A DNA stretch of 64,000 bases, from positions 1,961-65,960 of the forward strand of contig CALMYH010000002.1 in the NCBI GenBank assembly GCA_937873395.1. The letters run 5' to 3'. Position 1 is the first letter of the stretch. The number at the start of each line of letters is the position of its first letter. The notes under the pieces were generated by a model that was given only the letters and a program-made list of their open reading frames with translations, was not told the DNA's origin and did no database searches. Shown here one piece after another: positions 159 to 16,274 of this stretch. This stretch comes from an uncultured Burkholderiales bacterium. Lineage in GTDB: Bacteria > Pseudomonadota > Gammaproteobacteria > Burkholderiales > Burkholderiaceae_C. Position numbers and translations under genes: made by a program.

Positions 159-2093
<1,935 letters not shown>

Positions 2094-4351: not shown

Positions 4352-4897
4352 TCAGGACAGGTAGACTTTGCGCAGCAGGCGGATCAGGGTCTGCAATTCA
4401 GAGGCCGACAAGCGGTCGGCGACATCCGCCTCCAACTGGGAGGCTGTGGCCTCGGCGTCTTTCTGCAGGGCCTGGCCGTGCGCCGTGAGGTGCAGCCCCT
4501 GGGCGCGCCGGTCGGTGGGGTGCGGACGCCGTTCGATCAGCCCGCGCTTTTCCAGCGACTTGATCATGCCCACCAGGTTGGGTGGCAGGATGTCGAGCGC
4601 GGCACAGATCTGGCGCGACGTCACGCCCGGGTTGTGGGCGATGACACTGAGCACCGAGAAATCCACCGGTCGCAGGCCATAGGGCGCCATGCGCTGCAAA
4701 AAGACCGAGATGACCGCCAGCGCGGTGCGGCGCGCGTTGTAGCCCAGCAGGGTCTCGAGGTAGGAAGTGTCAACCCTTTCGCACGTTCCGGCAGGTGCCG
4801 CGGTCACCTTGGCGTTCCCGCTGGTACCGGCGAGCTCGGTTCGGGGTTTGGTCGAACGGCTCGATGGACTCAGTCTGGACGTGGCGGTGGACGGCAT
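4352..4897 (-). CDS. MarR family transcriptional regulator
   Basis: The MarR wHTH core is present (FSVLSVIAHNPGVTSRQICAALDILPPNLVGMIKSLEKRGLIERRPHPTDRR). It lies 12 nt downstream of the Crp/Fnr gene on the same strand. Confidence 0.85.
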   Translation of the reverse strand: MPSTATSRLSPSSRSTKPRTELAGTSGNAKVTAAPAGTCERVDTSYLETLLGYNARRTALAVISVFLQRMAPYGLRPVDFSVLSVIAHNPGVTSRQICAALDILPPNLVGMIKSLEKRGLIERRPHPTDRRAQGLHLTAHGQALQKDAEATASQLEADVADRLSASELQTLIRLLRKVYLS

Positions 4898-4909
4898 GTG
4901 GGAAGGATA

Positions 4910-5638
4910 TCACCCGCTGAAGGACGGCCTGGTTGCCGGGGCTGATGTGTCCGGTTGTCTCAGCAGGGTGATGCGTCCATAGCCCAGCCGCACCATGCCT
5001 TCCTTTTCCAGTCGGTTGAGTTCGGCGTTGACTTTCGGTCTCGACGCGTTGAGGGACTGGGCAAACTCCTGCTGGGTCAGGGTGATGGTGATGTGTCCGA
5101 AACGGTCTGGCTGCCCGTTGAAATGGGCGAGTCGCTGCAGTCTCTGGTAGATCCGGGAGCGCAGCGAAGGCAGCAGGTCCGATTCCATCAGCTCGAACAT
5201 CTCGGCCACCCGGGTGGCCAGGCTTCGGATGATGCCCAAGGCCAGATCGGGCTCGTTGTGCAACGTCTTAATCAGGGCCTGCCGGGAGATTTCGAGTGTC
5301 TGGCCTGCTTCTTCACAGACCATGTCGGTGGGGAAGGGCGCTCCGGCCAAGGCCGATGGAACGCCATAGAGTTCGCCGGGGGTGATGCGTCGCAGAAAGA
5401 GCGAATGCCCGTCCACGCTGTTGAGCAGCACCTTGTATTGCCCGCTCAGGCACACGCTGACACTCTCCATCCGCTGGCCGCTTCGCGTCAGTGTATCGCC
5501 CGCTTTCCAGGACCTTCGCAGGCCCACCGCTTCCAGTGTGTGAACCATGGCCTGGTCCAGCACGAAACGATCCAGCGCACGCTTGTGCAGCCAGTGGGAG
5601 GACAGCACATCTTCGGGTAAACCATAGATTGGTGTCAT
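4910..5638 (-). CDS. Crp/Fnr family transcriptional regulator
   Basis: It has a cNMP-binding-like beta-barrel followed by a C-terminal HTH (TQQEFAQSLNASRPKVNAELNRLEKEGMV). It is divergent from the ABC/BMC operon. Confidence 0.85.
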   Translation of the reverse strand: MTPIYGLPEDVLSSHWLHKRALDRFVLDQAMVHTLEAVGLRRSWKAGDTLTRSGQRMESVSVCLSGQYKVLLNSVDGHSLFLRRITPGELYGVPSALAGAPFPTDMVCEEAGQTLEISRQALIKTLHNEPDLALGIIRSLATRVAEMFELMESDLLPSLRSRIYQRLQRLAHFNGQPDRFGHITITLTQQEFAQSLNASRPKVNAELNRLEKEGMVRLGYGRITLLRQPDTSAPATRPSFSG

Positions 5639-5730
5639 CCCCTAGATTGTTACCTGAGAAACAGTTTTGTTCAAGGCATACACCGAATATGCGTCTGCGG
5701 GCTTGAGCTCGATCAACAGGAGACATCAAC

Positions 5731-6726
5731 GTGATCAAGAAACTTGCAATGCGCTGGGCGTCCATGGCCACCATCACCACACTCGCAGCGGCTGCCGCAC
5801 AGGCCCAGCCAGTGGTGCGTTTCCAAGACTATCCCGGCACCGGAAACTTGCTGGTGCGCGTGGCGCAGGCGCAGGGTTTTTGTGAGCAGGCGGGCATCCG
5901 TTGCGAACTGCGCGCCATTCCCGCCGCGCCGCTGGGCATGCAGACCATGTTGTCGGGCGACATCGAAGTGTCGTTTGGTCCGGCCGAGGTGGTGGTTGCC
6001 GCCCTGGCGCGCAAGGCGCCCATCAAAGTCATCGGGGCGGGCTATGTGGACCCGGTCTTCTTTATCGCAGCGGGCATGAAGACCGAGTTGCCGACCGAGG
6101 CCGAAGGCTATCCCGGTGTGGTGAAGTCGTTCAAGGGCAAAAAAATCGGTGTCACCCAGCGCGGCTCGGGCGCCGAGTTCCAGCTGATCGACATGCTGGC
6201 CGACGCCGGGCTGACCGCCAATGACGTGACCATCGTTGCTGTCGGCGCGCCCAATACGGCGTTCCCAGCGCTGACCCAGGGGCAGGTGGATCTGATCATG
6301 ACGTTTCCCCCCGCTGACGGCATGTGCGAAGTACTCAAGGCCTGCCGCGTGGTGATCGACCCGCGCAAAGGCCAGGGCCCCAAAAGCATCCTCGACTCCC
6401 GGGGTGGCGCGGGCGCCATGGCGGTGAAAGCCGACTGGGCAGCGGCCAACCCGGCGTTGGTGGAGAGCGTTCGCAAGATGCTGGCCTTGTCAGATGCCTT
6501 TGTGTCCAACCCGGCCAATTTCGACAGAACGCTGGAGGTGCTGCGCAAGACCTTTGGCCTGCAGTTGCCCAACGCCGATCAGATCGCCGAGGTTTCGTTC
6601 CGGAATTCGATAGGCAACTTCAAGGCCCAGGGAACGGTGCCCGCCATGCAGTCGGTGGCCGACACGATGTTTCAGAACAAGCTGGTGCCCGTGCGCGTGG
6701 ACATGGCCCCCGCCGTGCTGCCTTGA
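5731..6726 (+). CDS. ABC transporter periplasmic substrate-binding protein, NMT1/SsuA/TauA-like
   Basis: A GTG start follows an AGGAGA RBS. There is a signal peptide ending AAAAQAQP. The fold pattern is typical of nitrate/sulfonate/taurine-family binding proteins. Confidence 0.8.
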   Translation: MIKKLAMRWASMATITTLAAAAAQAQPVVRFQDYPGTGNLLVRVAQAQGFCEQAGIRCELRAIPAAPLGMQTMLSGDIEVSFGPAEVVVAALARKAPIKVIGAGYVDPVFFIAAGMKTELPTEAEGYPGVVKSFKGKKIGVTQRGSGAEFQLIDMLADAGLTANDVTIVAVGAPNTAFPALTQGQVDLIMTFPPADGMCEVLKACRVVIDPRKGQGPKSILDSRGGAGAMAVKADWAAANPALVESVRKMLALSDAFVSNPANFDRTLEVLRKTFGLQLPNADQIAEVSFRNSIGNFKAQGTVPAMQSVADTMFQNKLVPVRVDMAPAVLP

Positions 6727-6765
6727 TGCACACGTCACGGACGCAGGAAACCGCCCAGACGCGCC

Positions 6766-7530
6766 ATGATTGACGCCCAACGCATCGATTTGAGCTTCGA
6801 CGGCACCAACCTGGTGTTGCAAGGGGTGGACCTGCATGTCAAAGCCGGCGAGTTTGTGGCGCTGGCGGGCCCCAGTGGTTGCGGCAAGACGACCTTGCTC
6901 AACCTCTGTGCCGGGCTGGTGCCGCTGCCTGCGGGCCAGCACCTGAAGGTGGCCGGCCAGCCGCCCGCGCTGGGCAGTCACGGTGTGGCCTACATGTTGG
7001 CCAGAGACAGCCTGTTTCCCTGGCTCAGCGCACTGGATAACGCCGCCTTCGGGCTGAAGGTACGCGGCATGCCGGTGGCCCAGGCGCGCGAGCGCTCGGC
7101 CGTGATGCTCAAGCGCGTGGGTCTGGGTGGTGCTGAAAACAAGTTGCCCAAAGAGCTCTCGCACGGTATGCGCCAGCGGGTGGCGCTGGCGCGCACCTTT
7201 GCCATGCCCTCGCCACTGCTGCTCATGGACGAACCCTTTGGCGCGCTCGACGCGCAGACCAAGCTGCAGCTGCAGGACCTGTTGCTGCAACTGTGCCAGG
7301 AGGGAGAGCGCACTGTGCTGTTCGTGACCCACGACCTGTCGGAAGCGGTGGCCCTGGCCGATCGGGTGGTGGTGATGTCGTCCAGGCCCGGACGAATCGT
7401 GGCCGACGTGCCGGTGCCACTGCCGCGCCCGCGATCGATTCGCGCCCTGCAGACCAGCGACGACTTCCACCACACCTACACCCGGGTGTGGAAACATCTT
7501 GAAGAAGGATGGGTGCACCATGAAGGCTGA
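6766..7530 (+). CDS. ABC transporter ATP-binding protein (NitT/TauT family, TauB/SsuB-like)
   Basis: It carries Walker A GPSGCGKTT, signature LSHGMRQRVALAR and Walker B LLLMDEPF. Confidence 0.9.
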   Translation: MIDAQRIDLSFDGTNLVLQGVDLHVKAGEFVALAGPSGCGKTTLLNLCAGLVPLPAGQHLKVAGQPPALGSHGVAYMLARDSLFPWLSALDNAAFGLKVRGMPVAQARERSAVMLKRVGLGGAENKLPKELSHGMRQRVALARTFAMPSPLLLMDEPFGALDAQTKLQLQDLLLQLCQEGERTVLFVTHDLSEAVALADRVVVMSSRPGRIVADVPVPLPRPRSIRALQTSDDFHHTYTRVWKHLEEGWVHHEG

Positions 7531-8275
7531 GATGCTTCGCACACTGGCGCAACATGCGCTGTTCGTGACCCTGGTGCTCGGCGCCTGGGAGTGGGGTGCC
7601 AGGGCCGGCCTGATCGACCCGAGCTTTGTCGGCAGCCCGTTGGGCATTGCCCGCTTCACGCTGGAAAACTTCACCAACGCCCGGCTCTGGGGTGACCTGG
7701 TCTGGACGCTCACGGCGGTGTTTGTGTCCTTCGGCATTGGTTCCATGGCTGCCATCGCTGCCGGTCTGGCCTTTGTGACCTGGCCGCGGCTGGACGAGTT
7801 CTGTGAGCCCTACATCGCGGCGCTGAACGTGCTGCCCCGCATTGCGCTGGTGCCCCTTTTCATTCTCTGGTTCGGTCTGGGCCTGGGGTCGAAGATCGCC
7901 ATGGGCGTGTCGCTGACGTTCTTCATCGTGCTGTCCACCACCGTGGCGGGCATCCGCGGTGTCAGCCAGGACCACATCACGCTCACGCGCACGCTGGGCG
8001 CCAGCAGCCGCCAGATGTTCTTCTGGGTCACCTTGCCCGGCGCGGTGCCGGTGCTGTTCTCCGGTCTTCGCCTGGGCCTGATCTACGCCTTTCTGGGCGT
8101 GGTGGGGGCCGAGGTGATTGCATCCGAGCGCGGCCTGGGCCAGCAACTGGCCTACCTGGCCGCGATCTTCAACGTCAACGGTGTGTGGTCGCTGCTGTTC
8201 GACCTTGCAGTGATCGGCGTTCTGATCATGAAGCTCATGAGCTGGCTCGAACGTCGACTGCTGCACTGGCAATAA
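7520..8275 (+). CDS. ABC transporter permease (TauC/SsuC-like)
   Basis: It is a multi-pass membrane protein with the BPD-transporter EAA-like region. The ATG at 7520 overlaps the ATPase stop. The ORF track offers a TTG at 7499 as an alternative start. Confidence 0.85.
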   Translation: MKAEMLRTLAQHALFVTLVLGAWEWGARAGLIDPSFVGSPLGIARFTLENFTNARLWGDLVWTLTAVFVSFGIGSMAAIAAGLAFVTWPRLDEFCEPYIAALNVLPRIALVPLFILWFGLGLGSKIAMGVSLTFFIVLSTTVAGIRGVSQDHITLTRTLGASSRQMFFWVTLPGAVPVLFSGLRLGLIYAFLGVVGAEVIASERGLGQQLAYLAAIFNVNGVWSLLFDLAVIGVLIMKLMSWLERRLLHWQ

Positions 8276-8303
8276 GGCCCCCTTTTTCATCAGGAGATTC
8301 GAT

Positions 8304-9353
8304 ATGAAATTCCGTCACATCCAGGTGGACCCGATGACGCCCACCATCGGCGGCATGGTCAGCGGCGTGGACCTGAACAACACGCGGTCCGAAGATGTCT
8401 ACGAAGAGATCAAGCAGGCCCTGTGGCAGTACGGCGTGGTGTTCTTCCGCAAGCAGGCGCTCAAGCCCGAGGCCTATATTCGCCTGGGGAAAAACTTCGG
8501 CGAAATGGAGCAGCACGAGTTCTTCCCTCATGTCGAAGGGCATCCACAGATCCAGCTGATTTCGCACCAGGGCAACGAGGCACCCGAAACCGACCGCTGG
8601 CACACCGACGTGACCTTCCGCAAGAAGCCGAACATGGTGTCGATTCTGCGCATCACCGACCTGCCACCGGCCGGTGGCGACACCATGTGGATGCACGCCG
8701 GTGCGGCGTTCGACGCGCTCAACCCCGGCCTGCAGCAGATGCTCGAAGGCCTGCAGGCCGATCACGACCTGCCCTGGCATTTCCGCCGCATCAATGTGCA
8801 CGAGCGGCTGGCGCAGCGCGCCTCGGCCAAGAGTGGGATGCTGGTGACCGCCAATGCACAGGAGTGCAAGATGATCGAGAACACGCCCACGGTGACGCAC
8901 CCGGCGGTGATCACGCACCCCTATAACGGCCGCAAAATCCTGTTCGTCAACTCGATCTGGACCAAGCGCCTGCTGGGCATGCACATGGACCTGTCCGAAG
9001 CGCTGCTCAACATGCTCTATGAGTGGGTCAAGAAGCCTGAGTTTATGGTGCGCTTCCGCTGGGAAAAGGACTCGGTGGCCATGTGGGATAACTGCGCCAC
9101 GCAGCACTACGCGGTGTTCGACTACGCGCCGCACTACCGGGCCGGCCAGCGCATGACCTGCGGCAGCTTCGTGCCCTCCTTGCAGCCGACATCGGCCAGC
9201 AGCGCGGCTCAACCTGCGGCCCTGCGCCAGCTGATCGACACGACCCGCCTGCAGGCGGCCAGCCCACAGGAGCGGCAGGCTGTGGACGCGATCTTCAGTG
9301 CCCTCGAGGGTGTTGATCTCAATGCCGTGGCCAACGCCGCGCAGGGCCGTTGA
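8304..9353 (+). CDS. TauD/TfdA-family Fe(II)/2-oxoglutarate-dependent dioxygenase with a ~57-aa C-terminal extension
   Basis: The HxD motif is in RWHTDVTF, the GGDTMW motif is present, and the distal His is in WDNCATQHYA. An AGGAGA RBS precedes the start. The tail after ...MTCGSFVPS has no counterpart in canonical ~280-aa TauD. Confidence 0.9.
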   Translation: MKFRHIQVDPMTPTIGGMVSGVDLNNTRSEDVYEEIKQALWQYGVVFFRKQALKPEAYIRLGKNFGEMEQHEFFPHVEGHPQIQLISHQGNEAPETDRWHTDVTFRKKPNMVSILRITDLPPAGGDTMWMHAGAAFDALNPGLQQMLEGLQADHDLPWHFRRINVHERLAQRASAKSGMLVTANAQECKMIENTPTVTHPAVITHPYNGRKILFVNSIWTKRLLGMHMDLSEALLNMLYEWVKKPEFMVRFRWEKDSVAMWDNCATQHYAVFDYAPHYRAGQRMTCGSFVPSLQPTSASSAAQPAALRQLIDTTRLQAASPQERQAVDAIFSALEGVDLNAVANAAQGR

Positions 9354-9372
9354 AGCCGGAGCCGATGCTGCC

Positions 9373-10869
9373 ATGACCGAACTCAATCCCATTGCCGTGG
9401 GCGACAACGACCTGGCCGCCGTGCAGGAGGCGCGGCAGTTGCTGGCCCAGGCACGACCGGCGGCCGATGCGCTGGCCGGGTGGACGCCCGAGCACGCCAA
9501 GGCGGTGGCCAAGCGGGTGGCGGCCGCCCTGTTGCCGCGCGCCGAGTTCTACGCCGAGTGGGCGGTACGCGAAACCCGTATCGGCAAGGTGGCCGACAAG
9601 GTGGCCAAGAACCATTTCGCCTGCACCCTTACGCCCAGCGCCTGGGACCAGGTGGCCCTGGGCGGTGTGCGCCGCGTTGATGCGCTGCGCATCGTGGAGA
9701 TCGGCCGCCCGGCCGGTGTGGTGGTGGGGCTGTCGAACTCCACCTCGCCGGTGGCCACCATTCTGTTCAAGACCCTGATGTGCCTGATGACGCGCAACGC
9801 TCTGGTGGTGTCGCCGCACCCGGTGGCTCTGGGCTGTTGCACGGCGGTGGTGCGCGAGCTGCAGGCCGCCATCGAGACCGCAGGTGGTCCGACGAATGCG
9901 GTGCAGATACTGACCCGGCCGACGGTCGAGGCCACGGGTGCCCTCATGCGCGACACCCGCACCGACGTGATCCTCGCGACGGGCGGCACGCCCATGGTAC
10001 GCGCCGCCTACGGCTCGGGCAACCCGGCCATCGGGGTGGGTTCGGGCAACGTACCGATCTATGTGGACACCAGCGCCGACTTGAACGATGCGGCGCAGAA
10101 GGTGGTGCTGGCCAAGAACTTCGACCACGGCAGTCCTTGCTCGGCGCCGTCGGTTCTGATGCTGCATGCCGGTATCGCGCAAGCCATGCTGCAAGCGCTG
10201 ACCGCTGCCGGTGCGCATGTGTGCAGCGAGCTCGAGGCCCGGCAGATCCAGGATTACGCTTTTCCGGGTGGCAGGTTCAACGCCAAGGTGGTGGGACGAC
10301 CGGCACACGAAATTGCCAGCGCTGCAGGGGTGACGGTGAGCGCGACCTGCGAGGCGCTTGTGTGCCCCATGGCCCGACCGCAGGCGGGCCACCCCTTGCT
10401 GCGCGAGAAGCTCTCGCCCATTTTGGGCTGTGTGGTGGTGCCGGACATGGCGCAGGCCGTGGACGTGGCCCGCCTGATGCTGCAGAACAGCGGGGGTGGC
10501 CACACCTCGGGCATCTACACCGCCGACGCCACCCAGGCCGTGGCCTGGGGCGCTGCGCTCGATTACTACCGCGTGGTCGTCAACGGCAACACGGTGCTCG
10601 ACAGCACCGGCGACAACACCGGACTGCCCTATACCTTCACCATCGGCACCGGCTACGCCGGCAAGAGTTCGGTGGACTGCAATGTCGGCCCTGAGCTGCT
10701 GGTGAACTGGAAACGGGTGGCCTTTCCGCTGCCCGGTGGCTGGACCGGCGCCATGGCCTCGGGGGCGGCGACTGCCGCTGCCGGTGCCGCTGAGCCGGCC
10801 ATCCTCACACCCGAGCTCTCCGCCATGGTCCTGCGCATCGTGCAGGAAGAACTCGAACACATCCGCTGA
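9373..10869 (+). CDS. CoA-acylating aldehyde dehydrogenase (EutE/PduP-like) with a C-terminal amphipathic tail
   Basis: It has the ALDH fold, with the catalytic Cys context NFDHGSPCSAPSV resembling acetylating ALDHs. The start is set at MTELNP. The C-terminus is a Gly/Ala linker followed by LTPELSAMVLRIVQEELEHIR. Confidence 0.85.
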   Translation: MTELNPIAVGDNDLAAVQEARQLLAQARPAADALAGWTPEHAKAVAKRVAAALLPRAEFYAEWAVRETRIGKVADKVAKNHFACTLTPSAWDQVALGGVRRVDALRIVEIGRPAGVVVGLSNSTSPVATILFKTLMCLMTRNALVVSPHPVALGCCTAVVRELQAAIETAGGPTNAVQILTRPTVEATGALMRDTRTDVILATGGTPMVRAAYGSGNPAIGVGSGNVPIYVDTSADLNDAAQKVVLAKNFDHGSPCSAPSVLMLHAGIAQAMLQALTAAGAHVCSELEARQIQDYAFPGGRFNAKVVGRPAHEIASAAGVTVSATCEALVCPMARPQAGHPLLREKLSPILGCVVVPDMAQAVDVARLMLQNSGGGHTSGIYTADATQAVAWGAALDYYRVVVNGNTVLDSTGDNTGLPYTFTIGTGYAGKSSVDCNVGPELLVNWKRVAFPLPGGWTGAMASGAATAAAGAAEPAILTPELSAMVLRIVQEELEHIR

Positions 10870-10878
10870 AAGCCTGTC

Positions 10879-11493
10879 ATGTCCACTTTGCGCAGCTACA
10901 TCTTTCTGGACCGCTTGCAGCCACAACTGATGTGTTTGCTGGGGTCGACCGCTCGCGGCTTCTTGCCGCGCCACAACGACGCGGCCATGGTCATTGAAGT
11001 GGCACCCGGCATGGACATCGAGTGGCTGACCGACGTGGCCCTGAAGCACGACAACGTCAAACCCGGCAACCTGGTGGTGGAGCGGCAGTTCGGCTACCTG
11101 GAGTTTCACGGCCAGTCCTCGTCATCGGTGAAGTCGGCCGGCGCAGCGGTGCTGGAGGCCATGGGCGTGAGCGAAAAAAGCGCACTCAAGCCCGAGATCC
11201 TGGCGTCCAAGGTGATCGACCGGGTGGACGGCTACCACGCCTTCCTGATCAACCGCAGCAAGTCCGGCAGCATGCTCTTACCCGGCGAGTCGCTCTACAT
11301 CATGGAGATGACCACATCGTCGTACGCGCTGCTGGTGGCCAACGAAGCCGAAAAGGCCGCCAACGTCAAACTCATCGACTGCCGCTTCATGGGGCCTGCC
11401 GGACGTCTGTACCTCTCGGGGGATGCCTCGGACGTGCGCGCCGCCGCTGCGGTGGCCGAGGCTGTGATCCGCGACGCGAGAGGTGGCGTATGA
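10879..11493 (+). CDS. BMC-T shell protein (tandem BMC domains), paralog 1
   Basis: There are two BMC-like repeats. The first contains DVALKHDNVKPG...FGYLEFHGQSSSSVKSAGAAV. The second contains ANEAEKAANVKLID...GRLYLSGDASDVRAAAAVAEA. Confidence 0.85.
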   Translation: MSTLRSYIFLDRLQPQLMCLLGSTARGFLPRHNDAAMVIEVAPGMDIEWLTDVALKHDNVKPGNLVVERQFGYLEFHGQSSSSVKSAGAAVLEAMGVSEKSALKPEILASKVIDRVDGYHAFLINRSKSGSMLLPGESLYIMEMTTSSYALLVANEAEKAANVKLIDCRFMGPAGRLYLSGDASDVRAAAAVAEAVIRDARGGV

Positions 11494-12413
11494 GCGCCGA
11501 GGCCTTGCGCGAGCAGATCCGGGCTCAGGTGCGTACCGCTGTGGCGGCTCACACCGCCCCTGACCAGGGCGCCGCTGTGGCGGCCCTGATGCAGCGCTTT
11601 GAAGCCGGTTACGCCACCGCCAACGCCGAGGCCATCGTGGCCTGCTTTGCGCCCGATGTGGTTTGGGCCCTGCCCGACGCGCGCGTGCTCAACGGGCGCG
11701 CGGCCTGCCTGGCGTTCCTGAAGGAACGCTTTGCCAGCCCCGCAGGCCCGCAATTTGCCGACTCGCGCATGCATGTGCTGGGCCGGACCGTGGTGCAAAA
11801 CTACAAGGTCAGCCTGCCCCTGCCCGGCGGCCAGACGGTCACGCTGGACGGCGCCGACGTGTACCAGATCCGTGACGGGCTGATTGCGCGCAAAGACGCG
11901 TACTGGAAACAGATCGGTGCGGGCAAGCCGGGAACAGCCGCCGCACCGGCGGCCCCGGGCGCGGCATCCGTCGGCGTGGTCGTGCCCTTGCGCGTGGGCA
12001 CAGCCGCTGGCATCCAGGCGCTGAGCGAGCTGTACAAGCGGCTGGCCGCGAGCCCTGCGCTGCTGCAGGCGGCCCAGAACGGTGTGTTGCGCTTTGACTT
12101 GCGCGTGGACGAAGGACATGCGCTGGGCACGTCGGCCATGGCCGCCACCACCGCCATCGGCCCGGCTGCCTGCTGTGAGTCGTGCAAGGCAGGCAAATCC
12201 TGTGATTGCAAAGGCGACCACTGCGATCTGCATGAACACAAGACCGCCGAGGCCGTGCCCGAGCTTCACGGCGTGATCGGCGAGAAATTGCTCAGAACCC
12301 TGCCGCCAGGCGTGAAAACCGTTCGGCTGCATCCCAAGGCGGTCATGACGCCCTTGGGCAAGGATGCACTGCGCAAGCGCGGCATCACCATTGACCGAGG
12401 AGCCCAGCCATGA
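11490..12413 (+). CDS. Uncharacterised BMC-locus protein: N-terminal SnoaL/NTF2-like domain, Pro/Ala linker, Cys/His-rich cluster and a short C-terminal domain
   Basis: ATGA overlaps occur at both ends (11490/11493 and 12410/12413). The NTF2-like segment includes FAPDVVW...DVYQIRDGLIARKDAYW. The cluster reads CCESCKAGKSCDCKGDHCDLHEH. The start lies inside the longer ORF 11022..12413. Confidence 0.7.
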   Translation: MSAEALREQIRAQVRTAVAAHTAPDQGAAVAALMQRFEAGYATANAEAIVACFAPDVVWALPDARVLNGRAACLAFLKERFASPAGPQFADSRMHVLGRTVVQNYKVSLPLPGGQTVTLDGADVYQIRDGLIARKDAYWKQIGAGKPGTAAAPAAPGAASVGVVVPLRVGTAAGIQALSELYKRLAASPALLQAAQNGVLRFDLRVDEGHALGTSAMAATTAIGPAACCESCKAGKSCDCKGDHCDLHEHKTAEAVPELHGVIGEKLLRTLPPGVKTVRLHPKAVMTPLGKDALRKRGITIDRGAQP

Positions 12414-12679
12414 AGACCGGAACCGTGATTGGCCGCATCGTGGCCAGCAAACGCCTGCCCGAGCTGCCTGCGGGTGCCTTGCTGGAGGTGCAGCTGGACT
12501 ACCCCAAAGATGTGGTGGTTTGCTACGACCCATTGGGCTGCGGCATCGGTGAGCGCGTAATGATCACCATCGGCGCGCCCGCGGTCTGGTGGTTTGCGCC
12601 CGCACAGCAGCGCGTGGTGGCCGATGCGCTGATCATCGCTTCGCTCGACAACTACGACACGCCCACGCCCATGCGCTAA
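12410..12679 (+). CDS. BMC-P vertex protein (EutN/CcmL family pentamer)
   Basis: It is 89 aa and begins MKTGTVIGRIVASKRLPELPAGALLEVQ, which fits the EutN/CcmL beta-barrel pattern. Confidence 0.85.
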   Translation: MKTGTVIGRIVASKRLPELPAGALLEVQLDYPKDVVVCYDPLGCGIGERVMITIGAPAVWWFAPAQQRVVADALIIASLDNYDTPTPMR

Positions 12680-12745
12680 GGCTGAAGCCGCACGTTTTTC
12701 CTTTCCCCAACCCGTTGTTTTTCAACTCTTTATCAGGAGACTCTC

Positions 12746-13018
12746 ATGTCACAAGCCATCGGAATGATCGAGACCAAAGGTTATGTCAGCGCCTTCGCTG
12801 CAGCGGACGCCATGGTCAAAGCCGCCAACGTCAACATCGTGGGCAAGAAGGAAGTGGGCGGAGGCCTGGTGGCCATCATCGTCTCGGGCGATGTGGGCGC
12901 GGTCAAGGCTGCCACAGAGGCGGGGGCGGAAGCGGCCGGGGCGATTGGCGAAGTGGTGTCGTGCCACGTCATTCCCCGTCCGCATGCCGACGTGCAGAAG
13001 GCCTTTGACGGCAAGTGA
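12746..13018 (+). CDS. BMC-H hexameric shell protein (PduA/EutM/CcmK type)
   Basis: It has a canonical single BMC domain: [26 protein letters not shown]...[23 protein letters not shown]...HVIPRPH. The RBS AGGAGA is strong. Confidence 0.95.
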
Positions 13019-13056
13019 GCTGTTTCACCCGATAGGACCGTCTGGAAGGAGGCCGC

Positions 13057-13722
13057 ATGGCCACACGCAAACTCCCTGCAGCGTCGGCGCGTCCGGCGGC
13101 CGAGCTGCGGGTCTATCTGACGTTGACCGATCTGCAGGCCCAGTTTTCCTCGTGGATGAGTTCTCCGCTGGGTGCGCGCGGTTATGTCGCGATGCAGGGT
13201 ACCCACTCGCTGTTGGTGGAGATCGCCCCCGGGCTTTCGATCCAGCGGGTGATCGACCTGGCGCTCAAGGCCGAGCCCACCCTGGAGCCTGGCATTCTGG
13301 CGGTGGAGCGGCAGTTTGGCATTCTGGAGCTGCACAGCCAGGACCGCGCTGCGCTGGAGCGCGGGGGACAGGCCATTCTGGACTGGCTGGGTGCCCGGCC
13401 CCAGGACCAGCTGCGCCCGCAACTGCTCTACAGCGACATTCTGGACAACGTGACCGACCAGCACGCGGTGCTGATGAACCGAACCCGCCAGGCCAACATG
13501 GTGCTGCCCGGACAGAACCTGTTGCTGATGGAGGTGGCGCCGGCCCTGTTTGGTGCCCACATGGCCAACGAGGCCGAGAAGGTGGCACCCGATGTGACGC
13601 TGGTGGAGTGCAGCATGATCGGTGCCAGCGGTCGGATGTACCTCAGCGGCAATATGGCCTCGCTGGAAAAGGCCAAGGCCCACGTGGAGCAGTTGCTGCA
13701 GCAGATCCCGGGGCGGGGATAG
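13057..13722 (+). CDS. BMC-T shell protein (tandem BMC domains), paralog 2
   Basis: It has the same architecture as 10879..11493 (VERQFGILELH, ANEAEKVAPDVTLVE...GRMYLSGNMASLEKAKAHVE). It carries an extra ~16-aa N-terminal extension. Confidence 0.85.
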   Translation: MATRKLPAASARPAAELRVYLTLTDLQAQFSSWMSSPLGARGYVAMQGTHSLLVEIAPGLSIQRVIDLALKAEPTLEPGILAVERQFGILELHSQDRAALERGGQAILDWLGARPQDQLRPQLLYSDILDNVTDQHAVLMNRTRQANMVLPGQNLLLMEVAPALFGAHMANEAEKVAPDVTLVECSMIGASGRMYLSGNMASLEKAKAHVEQLLQQIPGRG

Positions 13723-13728
13723 CGTCCC

Positions 13729-14523
13729 TTGAGTGTGCACGCCGCCGCGTTGCCGTGGTCCATGCCTTTATTGTGCACGGCACTGGCGGTGTCGCTGGGT
13801 GCCGGGTTTGTGCGCGGCTTTGCCGGTTTTGGCTACTCGGCCCTGGTGGTTCTGGGTCTGTCTCTGCTGGTCTCGCCCGCCACCGTGGTGCCGGCGGTGC
13901 TGATGCTGGAGGTGATTGCCAGCGCCGGACTGCTTCGAGGCAGCTGGCCGCATGTCGATCGCAGCTGGCTGCGGGCGCTGTCGCTGGGCACCCTGATGGT
14001 GACCCCGCTGGGCATGGTCTGCCTGGCCTGGCTGCCCGAAGGCGTGGCGCGGCTGGGGGTAGGCTGCACGGTCCTGTTGTGTGCTTGCTTTCTTCGTGCC
14101 GCAGGTCACCGTTCCCCGTCCGACAGCGCCGCCTTGCGGGCCGTTGCCGGCGTCGGGGCGGGCTGGCTCAACGGCCTGGCGTCCAGCGGAGGTGTGTGGG
14201 CCGCACTGTGGATGACCGGCGCGGGCGTTCCAGCGGCAGCGATGCGCGCGACCATGGACGTCTTTCTGTTCTCGGGCGGTGTTTACGCCCTGCTGTGGGC
14301 CGCCGCCCTGTCGCTCGGGCAGGACAGCGATCGCCTGCTGAGTTCGGCCACCCTGGGATGGGTCGGTCTGCTGCTGCCCACCATGTGGCTGGGCATGGTC
14401 TGGGGCCGGCGTTGCGTGGCGGCTGTCAACCCCGGCCGGCTGCGCCATCTGGTGCTGAACCTGCTGATCGCGATGGCCAGTGTGGGCGTGTTGCGGGCGC
14501 TGCTGGGGCTGCAGAAGCTGTGA
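13729..14523 (+). CDS. TauE/SafE (TSUP) family sulfite/anion exporter
   Basis: It is a polytopic membrane protein with the glycine-rich motif GAGFVRGFAGFGYS typical of TSUP/TauE. The start codon is uncertain: TTG at 13729, GTG at 13735 or ATG at 13762. Confidence 0.78.
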   Translation: MSVHAAALPWSMPLLCTALAVSLGAGFVRGFAGFGYSALVVLGLSLLVSPATVVPAVLMLEVIASAGLLRGSWPHVDRSWLRALSLGTLMVTPLGMVCLAWLPEGVARLGVGCTVLLCACFLRAAGHRSPSDSAALRAVAGVGAGWLNGLASSGGVWAALWMTGAGVPAAAMRATMDVFLFSGGVYALLWAAALSLGQDSDRLLSSATLGWVGLLLPTMWLGMVWGRRCVAAVNPGRLRHLVLNLLIAMASVGVLRALLGLQKL

Positions 14524-14549
14524 TGGAGACGCCCCGGGTCCCCTGAGCT

Positions 14550-16274
14550 TCAGCCGCGGTCGAGCGTGTCCTGCATCATAGACAGGCGCATGTCGAACTC
14601 GGGCCAGACCCAGCGCCAGAAGCTGGTCTGAGCGGTTTGCCAGCGCGGAGCAACGGCGCCGCCGGCAGCGCCGATGCGCGCCCATGCCCATGCCATGAGC
14701 AGCATCGCCACGGCGCGCAGGAAGTCGTCGGCCAGCCAGTGCGGCAGGTCCGCGGGAGCGTTCTTGGCGGTGGCGCGGGGCAGCAGTCTGGCTTGAAGAA
14801 AGGCGATGAACCGGGTGAGTTCGGTCTTTGCCCGCATGGCTTGTTCGTCATTGCCCAGCTCGGTGCCGAGGTCGGCCAGCAGTTGGCGCAGAGCGGCGCC
14901 GCCGTCGGGCAGGGTCTTGCGCAGCAGCAGGTCGATGGCCTGGATCTCGTTGGTGCCCTCGTAGATCATGGCCACGCGCGCGTCGCGAACCACCTGCTCG
15001 ATGCCCCACTCGCGCACATAGCCGTGGCCACCGAACACCTGCAGGCAGGCGCTGGCGCCATGGAAAGCCTGATCGGTCCAGGCGGCCTTGAGCACGGGCG
15101 TGACCAGCGCGCACCAGCGGCCGGCGGTTTCGCGCCGTTGTGCGTCTGGGTGGTGCTTGATGATGTCCAGCTCGACTGCGGTGCGGTACGCGACCACGCG
15201 GCCAGCGTCGATCCAGGCGCGCTGGGTATCGAGGATGCGGCGCATGGCCGGATGCGCCTCGATGAGATCCGCTTCGCCCGCTTTGGCGTTGCCACCGGGG
15301 GCGCGCATCTGGCGCCGTTCTTTGGCGTAGGTGTCTGCCTTCTGCCAGGCGGCTTCGAGCAGGCCGATGCCCTGCAGGCCCACATGCAGGCGGGCGGCGT
15401 TCATCATCACGAACATCGCGTTCAGGCCTTTGCCCGGCTCGCCGACGATCCAGCCCGGTGCCTCGTCGAAGCGCATGACGCAGGTGGGGCTGCCATGCAG
15501 GCCCATCTTTTCCTCGATGCGTTCGCAGAACACAGCGCTGCGCGTGCTGTCTTCATAAAACTTGGGCACCAGGAACAGCGACAGGCCCTTGGGTCCGGGC
15601 GGACTGTCGGGCAGGCGGGCCAGCACCAGGTGCACGATGTTGTCGGTCAGGTCGTGTTCACCACCGGAGATGAAGATCTTGGTGCCGGACAGCGCGTAGC
15701 GGCCGTCGGCCTGCGGAACCGCCTTGGTGCGGCACAGGCCGAGGTCGGAGCCGGCGTGTGGCTCGGTCAGGCACATGGTGGCCAGCCATTCGCCGGTGGC
15801 GACCTTCTCCAGGTAGGTGGCCTTCAGTTCGTCGGACGCGTGGTGCTTGATGCACTCGTAGGCGCCGTGCAGCAGGCCGGGCGCCATGGTCCAGCCGTGA
15901 TTGGCAGCGCTGAGCATCTCGTACAGCATGGCCTCCAGCACGGCGGGCAGGCCCTGGCCACCGTCTTCCGTGGCACAGGCCAGCGAAGGCCAGCCCGCCT
16001 GCCAGAAGGCTTGATAGGCGTCACGGAAGCCCGGTGGCATGGTGACAGCGCCGCCCCTGAGATGCGCACCGATTTCGTCACCGTCTCGGTTGAGCGGGGC
16101 GACCACTTCGGCCACGAACTTGCCCGACTCCTCCAGCACCTGCTGCATCAGATCGGCGTCGACCTCGGCCCCGTGACCCGAATACTGGGGCAGGGTCTGC
16201 AACTGGGTCGGTGCCTGCAGTGCCTGCTGCAGGATGAAGAACATGTCGTCGGTGCGGGGCTGAAAGTGGTTCAC
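14550..16274 (-). CDS. Long-type acyl-CoA dehydrogenase
   Basis: ACAD motifs are present (CLTEPHAGSDLG, IFISGGEHD, GGHGYVREWGIEQVVRDARVAMIYEGTNEIQ). I chose the GTG at 16274, with the ATG at 16244 as an alternative. The 902-aa ORF is an artefactual upstream read-through across neighbouring genes. Confidence 0.9.
   Translation of the reverse strand: MNHFQPRTDDMFFILQQALQAPTQLQTLPQYSGHGAEVDADLMQQVLEESGKFVAEVVAPLNRDGDEIGAHLRGGAVTMPPGFRDAYQAFWQAGWPSLACATEDGGQGLPAVLEAMLYEMLSAANHGWTMAPGLLHGAYECIKHHASDELKATYLEKVATGEWLATMCLTEPHAGSDLGLCRTKAVPQADGRYALSGTKIFISGGEHDLTDNIVHLVLARLPDSPPGPKGLSLFLVPKFYEDSTRSAVFCERIEEKMGLHGSPTCVMRFDEAPGWIVGEPGKGLNAMFVMMNAARLHVGLQGIGLLEAAWQKADTYAKERRQMRAPGGNAKAGEADLIEAHPAMRRILDTQRAWIDAGRVVAYRTAVELDIIKHHPDAQRRETAGRWCALVTPVLKAAWTDQAFHGASACLQVFGGHGYVREWGIEQVVRDARVAMIYEGTNEIQAIDLLLRKTLPDGGAALRQLLADLGTELGNDEQAMRAKTELTRFIAFLQARLLPRATAKNAPADLPHWLADDFLRAVAMLLMAWAWARIGAAGGAVAPRWQTAQTSFWRWVWPEFDMRLSMMQDTLDRG

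Follow-up and report, generated by a model that had tools for sequence, protein, structure and literature searches.

An open reading frame referred to here as ORFX lies among the shell genes of a bacterial microcompartment (BMC) operon in a 64,000-nucleotide stretch of DNA (the window) from an uncultured Burkholderiales bacterium (GenBank assembly GCA_937873395.1, contig CALMYH010000002.1, positions 1,961 to 65,960). According to the best-supported reading, its modular product is a PduM-like linker or scaffold between shell and cargo in a compartment of the RMM1 type, with a TauD-family dioxygenase inside.

Reading frame and modular architecture of ORFX

ORFX (11490..12413, + strand) translates into 307 residues without internal stops. 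Its start (...gcgtATGAgcgcc at 11490) shares the four nucleotides ATGA with the stop of the upstream BMC-T gene (10879..11493), and its own stop (...agccATGAagacc at 12410) overlaps the start of the downstream BMC-P gene (12410..12679) in the same fashion. The GC content at third codon positions (GC3) is 0.74-0.88 in the ORFX frame across 11479-12378, and all close homologues start with MS[AT][DE]ALREQIR at ORFX's own methionine. Translation, GC3 and homologue starts thus bear out the frame and the two overlaps described in an earlier note made from the sequence alone. A longer open reading frame (11022..12413), which that note had mentioned as a possible true frame, is ruled out by codon-position GC content and homologue N-termini: in the upstream extension (11022-11489) GC3 is 0.44 in the ORFX frame versus 0.82-0.94 in the BMC-T frame, so that BMC-T is the coding frame there, and the homologues share the ORFX methionine. 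The same note took the coupling to argue for stoichiometric co-production with the shell; the overlaps indicate co-translation but are silent on stoichiometry.

The protein consists of five conserved modules alternating with variable, disordered linkers. These are listed below with mean pairwise identities and, for two linkers, the predicted local distance difference test score (pLDDT) of the AlphaFold2 models:

11490..11549, + strand: N-terminal helix, residues 1-20, MSAEALREQIRAQVRTAVAA, candidate encapsulation or signal peptide (identity 0.84)
11568..11912, + strand: SnoaL/NTF2-like domain, residues 27-141, accessory insertion (identity 0.87)
11913..11975, + strand: Pro/Ala-rich variable linker, residues 142-162, of varying length (pLDDT <50, mean identity 0.45)
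11976..12107, + strand: middle module, residues 163-206, VVVPLRVG...LRFDLRVDE, beta-alpha-alpha-beta (identity 0.88)
12108..12170, + strand: variable spacer, residues 207-227 (pLDDT <50)
12171..12239, + strand: Cys6His2 cluster CCxxCx5CxCx4CxxHxH, residues 228-250, putative metal or redox site (identity 0.79)
12252..12398, + strand: C-terminal PduM-like module, residues 255-303, ...GVIGEKLL...VRLHPKAVMTPLGKDALRKRGITI (identity 0.89)

Mean pairwise identity in the linkers is 0.33-0.58, and the spacer at residues 207-227 differs in length by more than 20 residues among close homologues. The four parts distinguished in the earlier note (SnoaL domain, Pro/Ala linker, Cys/His segment and C-terminal module) are all present, and two further conserved modules, the N-terminal helix and the middle module, are added to them.

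The universal core of the family is made up of the N-terminal helix, the middle module and a 45-residue C-terminal module. Family members of 143-202 residues lack the SnoaL domain, and several of them also lack the cluster, while the helix, middle and C-terminal modules are retained. More specifically, two loci with the gene order of the window (L035 and L036) encode forms of 201-202 residues without a SnoaL domain, which retain the N-terminal helix (MNTDALREQIR...) and all of the protein from residue ~160 on.

AlphaFold2 models built with close homologues only are confident for hardly more than the SnoaL domain. When a diverse alignment of the core (A4) is used, residues 144-307 reach a mean pLDDT of 79.6, and two confident modules, residues 163-206 (pLDDT 91-96) and 255-303 (pLDDT 91-97, modelled as short strands and two helices), are connected by a disordered spacer that bears the cluster. 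The model of residues 144-307 has no meaningful Foldseek match in the PDB (best E=0.45), and PDB sequence searches returned nothing for residues 160-307 and only a spurious 14-bit match for the family profile. Pfam and NCBIfam scans of the C-terminal half and of the last 56 residues gave no match at E<=10, and the middle module, which is kept in all family members, matches nothing in Pfam or the PDB.

The C-terminal module and its relationship to PduM

That ORFX and PduM share a C-terminal module is well supported by profile comparison. In hhalign the C-terminal 43-44 columns of the ORFX family align with PduM at a probability of 84% (E=7e-6) using 18 aligned PduM sequences, and at 81% in a repeat with 24. 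The PduM sequences had been fetched with a query that was validated by its score of 208 bits against PF15953 and its 96% identity to a database PduM. The hhalign score of 39.1 lies ~11 standard deviations above 150 column-shuffled decoys (12.7±2.3, maximum 20.3), and a reversed alignment scores 13.6. The global alignment of the two proteins is colinear.

The Pfam results point in the same direction. When 13 diverse members were scanned at a permissive threshold, PF15953 (PDU_like, PduM) was the sole recurrent family outside the SnoaL domain. In four distant members the last 40 residues match positions 113-153 of its 153 (E=0.06-0.1, 12.9-13.8 bits), and the matches always run C-terminus to C-terminus. 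The family consensus scores 19.4-21.4 bits against PF15953, with E=2.6e-4 and 21.4 bits for the consensus of the C-terminal module. Close relatives crowded out everything else in a profile search that used the SnoaL-less alignment, and PduM was not reached.

The proteins share the ending ...V-T-[PA]-[LM]-[AG]-[RK]-[DE]-x-[AL]-x-x-R-x-I-x-[LI]. A glutamate, a threonine and a proline of this module are invariant throughout the ORFX family, and where the family has its invariant TP, PduM has TA. The resemblance extends to overall layout, since PduM likewise has an N-terminal helix, a middle region and a C-terminal module of ~45 residues, and at 163 residues it is similar in size to the SnoaL-less ORFX forms (143-202 residues). 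It extends also to gene position: pduM stands directly upstream of pduN (BMC-P) in Salmonella (L052), which mirrors the adjacency of ORFX and the BMC-P gene. Unlike ORFX, PduM has no SnoaL domain, Pro/Ala linkers or Cys/His cluster, and it belongs to the 1,2-propanediol utilisation (Pdu) microcompartment of Salmonella and Klebsiella, a B12 diol dehydratase system, whereas ORFX is hosted by an RMM1-type shell with a TauD-family dioxygenase.

The N-terminal helix, modelled by AlphaFold2 at residues 3-19 and flanked by a variable stretch, is retained in the SnoaL-less forms of L035 and L036 and in distant members (MNxExLRxQIR). With the C-terminus removed, the best local hhalign match pairs residues 1-21 with PduM residues 1-21 at a score of 17.2 against decoys of 11.2±2.1, a value equalled by 3 of 100 decoys; the corresponding global colinear alignment scores 10.4 against 2.9±2.4, with 1 of 100 decoys as high. 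The support for a helix shared with PduM is therefore marginal.

A different relative had been proposed for the C-terminal segment in the earlier note, which pointed to a weak likeness to the N-terminal region of Eut-type adenosyltransferases. Co_AT_N (PF12557) is a TPLA-motif N-terminal extension of some PduO-type adenosyltransferases. The likeness, which consists of a T-P-x-A motif followed by a basic and hydrophobic stretch in a BMC-associated protein, was not recovered by the Pfam scans: Co_AT_N was absent at E<=10 from ORFX, its C-terminus, the 13 members and the consensus, in scans in which the HMMER filters drop most matches with E above ~0.1. The real match is the C-terminus of PduM. 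Searched domain by domain, as the note had suggested, the N-terminal domain thus falls to SnoaL_2 and the C-terminal module resembles PduM, while the Cys/His segment is unmatched. Far from placing ORFX in a well-known family unrelated to BMCs, the sole profile match outside the SnoaL domain is a BMC protein.

Genomic context and distribution of the family

The operon that contains ORFX is composed of the following genes, with a regulator upstream:

4352..4897: MarR-type regulator, upstream of the operon
5731..6726, + strand: NMT1/TauA-like binding protein
6766..7530, + strand: ATP-binding cassette (ABC) ATPase
7499..8275, + strand: permease
8304..9353, + strand: TauD-family Fe(II)/2-oxoglutarate dioxygenase
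to 10869, + strand: acylating aldehyde dehydrogenase (AldDH)
10879..11493, + strand: BMC-T, tandem, CcmP-like (NCBIfam, E=1e-64)
11490..12413, + strand: ORFX
12410..12679, + strand: BMC-P pentamer, EutN_CcmL (E=3e-13)
12746..13018, + strand: BMC-H
13057..13722, + strand: second BMC-T
13729..14523, + strand: TauE sulfite exporter (TauE/SafE)

A scan of 4800..14800 found no promoter-like or terminator-like site inside the operon (5731..14523); terminator-like sites were confined to two, at 5011 and 5417, and both lie upstream of its first gene. With one BMC-H, one BMC-P and two different BMC-T(dp) proteins the shell set is of the RMM1/AAUM type, this being the RMM1 set given in the Sutter 2021 supplement, and Limnohabitans shell proteins are filed under RMM1 in the Sutter 2021 catalogue. 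The signature enzymes of RMM1/AAUM loci (class III aminotransferase/phospho-lyase, kinase and short-chain dehydrogenase/reductase) are not matched by the window locus, where a TauD-family dioxygenase and a transporter resembling TauABC take the place of the amino-alcohol enzymes. Both TauD and AldDH carry C-terminal extensions past their catalytic domains that resemble encapsulation peptides. These extensions are candidate encapsulation peptides, their helicity being read off the sequence and their hydrophobic moments not significant.

Database searches returned 466 homologues of ORFX, of which the full-length ones share 68-83% identity and carry no annotation beyond "NTF2 family" or "ketosteroid isomerase-like". 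A genome scan yielded 40 loci from Limnohabitans, Hydrogenophaga and other Comamonadaceae. Using tblastn with all window proteins, the order transporter, TauD, AldDH, first BMC-T (T1), ORFX homologue (X), BMC-P (P), BMC-H (H) and second BMC-T (T2) was found to be near-universal among those of the 40 loci that are long enough to show it, and the order T1-X-P-H-T2 is strict in ~37 of them. The conservation of the gene in syntenic loci, which the earlier note had proposed as a check, is therefore established. Shell proteins are 93-99% identical across loci; the linkers bring the overall conservation of ORFX below that level.

When 1.8 billion representatives were searched at high sensitivity with residues 160-307, only 26 proteins were returned, among them proteins of 143-195 residues that are 27-54% identical and have the same three-part core. 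In the contexts of these distant members X stands directly upstream of BMC-P, both in TauD-type loci and in a locus with class III aminotransferase and AldDH, the classical RMM1 enzyme set (L041). The order T1-X-P-H-T2 recurs in the distant contexts that reach beyond BMC-P (aminotransferase-type L041 and TauD-type L046, L047 and L049), while in shorter contigs (L045, L048, L053 and L054) X-P or X alone is visible. Overall, X adjoins P in the window and in L001-L037, L039, L041, L044, L046, L047, L049, L051, L053 and L054, and the start/stop overlaps are retained across the contexts of ORFX. Because X lies upstream of BMC-P in TauD and aminotransferase loci alike, it belongs regularly to shell operons of the RMM1/AAUM type and is no one-off fusion. 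The combination of domains had not been recognised in the earlier note as a known BMC component; its core turns out to recur regularly in such operons.

The SnoaL domain and the Cys6His2 cluster

The SnoaL domain is matched by SnoaL_2 over residues 35-134 (E=2e-16, 60.8 bits against a cut-off of 27) and also by DUF4440 (E=2e-9), SnoaL_3 and SnoaL_4; NCBIfam subfamily matches are all under their cut-offs. It is modelled by AlphaFold2 at a pLDDT of ~70-90. Foldseek against the PDB finds ketosteroid isomerase, limonene epoxide hydrolase and putative cyclases (E ~3e-8, target template modelling score 0.74-0.84), a likeness that is generic across these three groups. In a census of 224 family sequences, which is biased by the manner of their collection, the domain is absent from 50, single in 172 and doubled in 2, the last being two database proteins. 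The SnoaL domain is thus accessory and dispensable within the family, and its variable copy number fits a role in valency, oligomerisation or ligand binding better than that of an essential enzyme. Most likely it adds self-association (valency) or small-molecule binding. A free-standing SnoaL protein of ~120 residues in L038 (~1215..1582), which adjoins membrane genes resembling those of tripartite ATP-independent periplasmic (TRAP) transporters, is 38% identical to the ORFX domain and shares its KDAYWKQI ending; it is a candidate for the source family of the inserted domain.

The cluster segment, CCESCKAGKSCDCKGDHCDLHEH, spans residues 228-250, and C228, C229, C232, C238, C240, C245, H248 and H250 do not vary among the 19 sequences of alignment A1. 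The full Cys6His2 pattern hardly varies within the Comamonadaceae clade, and in the census it is present in 195 of the 224 sequences, CCxxCx5CxC only in 15, and fewer or none of the cysteines in 14. Among distant members the cluster decays stepwise to C5, then to CxC, then to none. Cysteine-free forms of X adjoin TauD in two loci (P0141 in L047 and P0146 in L049), and the cluster is therefore no general requirement of TauD encapsulation. Neither the SnoaL domain nor the cluster is required by the family as a whole. In the models the cluster is a low-confidence loop, and a Pfam scan of residues 144-307 showed that its spacing matches no Pfam family, including those of iron-sulphur (Fe-S) or zinc proteins. 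The loop most likely binds metal (structural Zn, or Fe-S/Fe) or forms redox-sensitive cross-links.

The cysteines of X have a possible counterpart in the adjacent pentamer. A BMC-P loop with two cysteines (VC[YF]DPLGCG) is found in cysteine-bearing X lineages (the window, L046, L044, L051, L053 and L054), and the corresponding loop lacks cysteines (ALDGxGxG) in L047 and L049, both TauD lineages with cysteine-free X; the BMC-P of L041 has the second loop cysteine only. The cysteines of X and BMC-P may co-vary, in a sample that is small and confounded by phylogeny.

Possible functions of ORFX

Three functions were offered in the earlier note, namely a cargo scaffold, an iron or redox chaperone for the dioxygenase, and a second enzyme. 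The scaffold is the best supported of these because the C-terminal module resembles PduM, a shell-cargo linker. In PduM a signal sequence at residues 1-23 suffices for targeting (PMC12108088), and loss of PduM partly uncouples the shell from the cargo core (PMC9132943). ORFX is accordingly regarded, with moderate confidence, as a non-enzymatic structural microcompartment protein, the RMM1-type counterpart of PduM, with its modules arranged like beads on a string. By analogy with PduM, the N-terminal helix would insert into the cargo core alongside the tails at the C-termini of TauD and AldDH, the middle and C-terminal modules would contact the shell or a shell-bound partner, and ORFX would in this way tie cargo to shell during assembly. 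The SnoaL domain lies between the helix and the rest of the core, and the Cys6His2 loop between the middle and C-terminal modules.

Several observations weigh against this interpretation. Only ~45 residues of ORFX are demonstrably PduM-like, and with the C-terminus removed the middle module has no significant local match with PduM residues ~25-115. The window protein itself (at E<=0.1) and its C-terminal half (at E<=10) give no PF15953 match, and even the family consensus misses the gathering score of 27 bits, where a genuine PduM scores 208; ORFX is thus not a member of PF15953 and should not be filed under it. The N-terminal helix is no more than weakly amphipathic: its hydrophobic moment (0.41 on the Eisenberg scale) is equalled or exceeded by 21% of shuffles, and that of PduM is 0.72. 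The mechanism is borrowed from genetics and imaging of PduM in another system, in which the partners of PduM are not structurally defined, and the residence of ORFX in a compartment is predicted. Finally, strong purifying selection acts on the SnoaL domain and the cluster in the clade (87% and 79% identity); both therefore serve some specific purpose that a model of a mere linker leaves unexplained.

A rival explanation is the second enzyme. According to that explanation the SnoaL domain is the catalyst for one reaction of a pathway intermediate (for example an aminoaldehyde or its sulfite adduct), and the rest of the protein targets and anchors it. The domain shares its fold with ketosteroid isomerases, limonene epoxide hydrolases and cyclases, its 87% identity across the clade is accompanied by retention in a distant member that is 44% identical (P0136), and its place behind a helix resembling an encapsulation peptide is like that seen in cargo enzymes. 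An encapsulated enzyme is nevertheless unlikely, and the option is weakened as an essential function by L035 and L036, loci of otherwise identical order that lack the domain and have no SnoaL gene within 10 kb. The domain is absent from 50 of the 224 census sequences and doubled in 2, and the SnoaL-less P0154 is 73% identical to the window core and is therefore nested among SnoaL-bearing forms. Moreover, no catalytic signature can be assigned, the best PDB sequence matches are uncharacterised proteins (E ~0.007), and the universally conserved part of the protein is its C-terminal 165 residues. A metal or redox module, in which the cluster binds Fe(II), Fe-S, Zn or Cu and supplies or protects the Fe(II) centre of TauD or relays electrons, draws on the density of eight ligand residues within 23, invariant in the clade, on a partner enzyme that is an Fe(II)/2-oxoglutarate dioxygenase, and on the two loop cysteines of BMC-P in cysteine-bearing lineages. 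An electron relay would be relevant because RMM/AAUM loci reportedly lack both known systems of NAD+ regeneration (PMC11626177). The cysteine-free X of TauD-type loci L047 and L049 weakens an iron chaperone as an obligatory role; the stepwise decay in distant members, a spacing unlike any Fe-S or Zn family in Pfam, the lack of a flavin or NAD(H) domain and the confounding of the BMC-P co-variation by phylogeny also tell against such a module, which is likewise considered improbable.

ORFX could also be a cytosolic regulator or chaperone that lies among the shell genes by coincidence. Its basic C-terminus (KRGITIDRG, KTVRLHPK) could bind nucleic acid, and EutK provides the precedent of a BMC-locus protein with a nucleic-acid-binding domain. 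This explanation is very improbable, given that across distant lineages the gene invariably keeps its place between shell genes, with overlaps, that no helix-turn-helix or other regulator is matched, that the likeness to PduM indicates a structural role, and that a MarR-type regulator is already encoded upstream. The linker, enzyme and metal or redox readings are not mutually exclusive, and a bolder combination, to which only a small probability is given, would make PduM and the X of RMM1-type loci one widespread linker family, with the linker of the TauD clade acting as a cofactor carrier that is multimerised by its NTF2 domain. As parts of this doubtful combination, the shared 45-residue C-terminal module would be a docking element, possibly onto the pentamer encoded next to it, and the cluster an Fe/Fe-S centre that buffers Fe(II) for, or takes electrons from, the dioxygenase/AldDH pair.

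The linker interpretation has parallels in other compartments. CsoS2 and the N-terminus of PduB are modular scaffolds that bridge cargo and shell. Like these and CcmM/CcmN, ORFX is modular, rich in linkers and encoded with shell genes, but it has no sequence relationship to them, is composed of other modules and lacks Rubisco-binding repeats. The SnoaL/NTF2-like superfamily (ketosteroid isomerase, limonene epoxide hydrolase, SnoaL cyclases and the CaMKII association domain) has the fold in common with the ORFX domain, which differs in being inserted in a BMC structural protein in 0 to 2 copies. PduK's C-terminal extension contains a putative Fe-S motif. Like the ORFX cluster it is cysteine-rich, apparently unstructured and carried by a minor BMC structural protein; the two are alike by description, the spacing and the carrier protein being different. 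The function of the PduK extension is unknown (PMC9132943), and a comparison of PduM with CcmM/CcmN was made in the same paper.

PduM is among the least understood structural proteins of metabolosomes, and according to a 2025 paper no homologues of it are known beyond Pdu compartments (PMC12108088). What is new here is most likely a structural protein of the PduM type that occurs outside Pdu systems and carries a SnoaL insertion as well as a Cys/His cluster. If a related module does occupy the same operon position in an unrelated compartment, then the PduM-type linker is a more general element of assembly, and the functional core of PduM is narrowed to ~45 residues, which would aid studies of mechanism and the engineering of synthetic compartments. 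The natural series of proteins with 0, 1 or 2 SnoaL domains, with or without the Cys/His cluster, provides ready variants for probing these additions.

Other features of the host locus and its relatives

The operon joins a TauABC-like transporter, a TauD dioxygenase, AldDH, an RMM1-type shell and a TauE exporter, and so places an O2- and Fe(II)-dependent enzyme of the TauD family in a shell. A literature search found no paper that describes such a locus or the ORFX protein or that links a TauD enzyme to a microcompartment, and the Sutter 2021 paper and its supplements have no entry for taurine, TauD or SnoaL. The TauE/SafE gene (13729..14523) has no tblastn match in the 40 related loci, many of which reach 8-9 kb downstream, and it appears to be specific to the lineage of the window. 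The longest AldDH reading frame has a GTG start and overlaps the 3' end of TauD by 56 nucleotides (window 9298..9372). Since matches to AldDH family profiles start at residue ~36-43, the true start is probably the ATG at ~9373 (MTELNPIAV...).

Among the related loci, L049 (278..2645) is a variant in which no aldehyde dehydrogenase separates TauD from the BMC-T, X and BMC-P genes that come directly after it. A second pair of BMC-H and BMC-T2 genes is present in L019 (16139..17103), ~4 kb downstream of the main shell cluster, and its products are 96% and 89% identical to the window proteins. The contig of L014 (CALQKH020000010.1) is labelled as a metagenome-assembled genome of Akkermansia muciniphila and contains a complete locus of the Comamonadaceae type at 69-97% protein identity; the label is probably a binning or labelling error.

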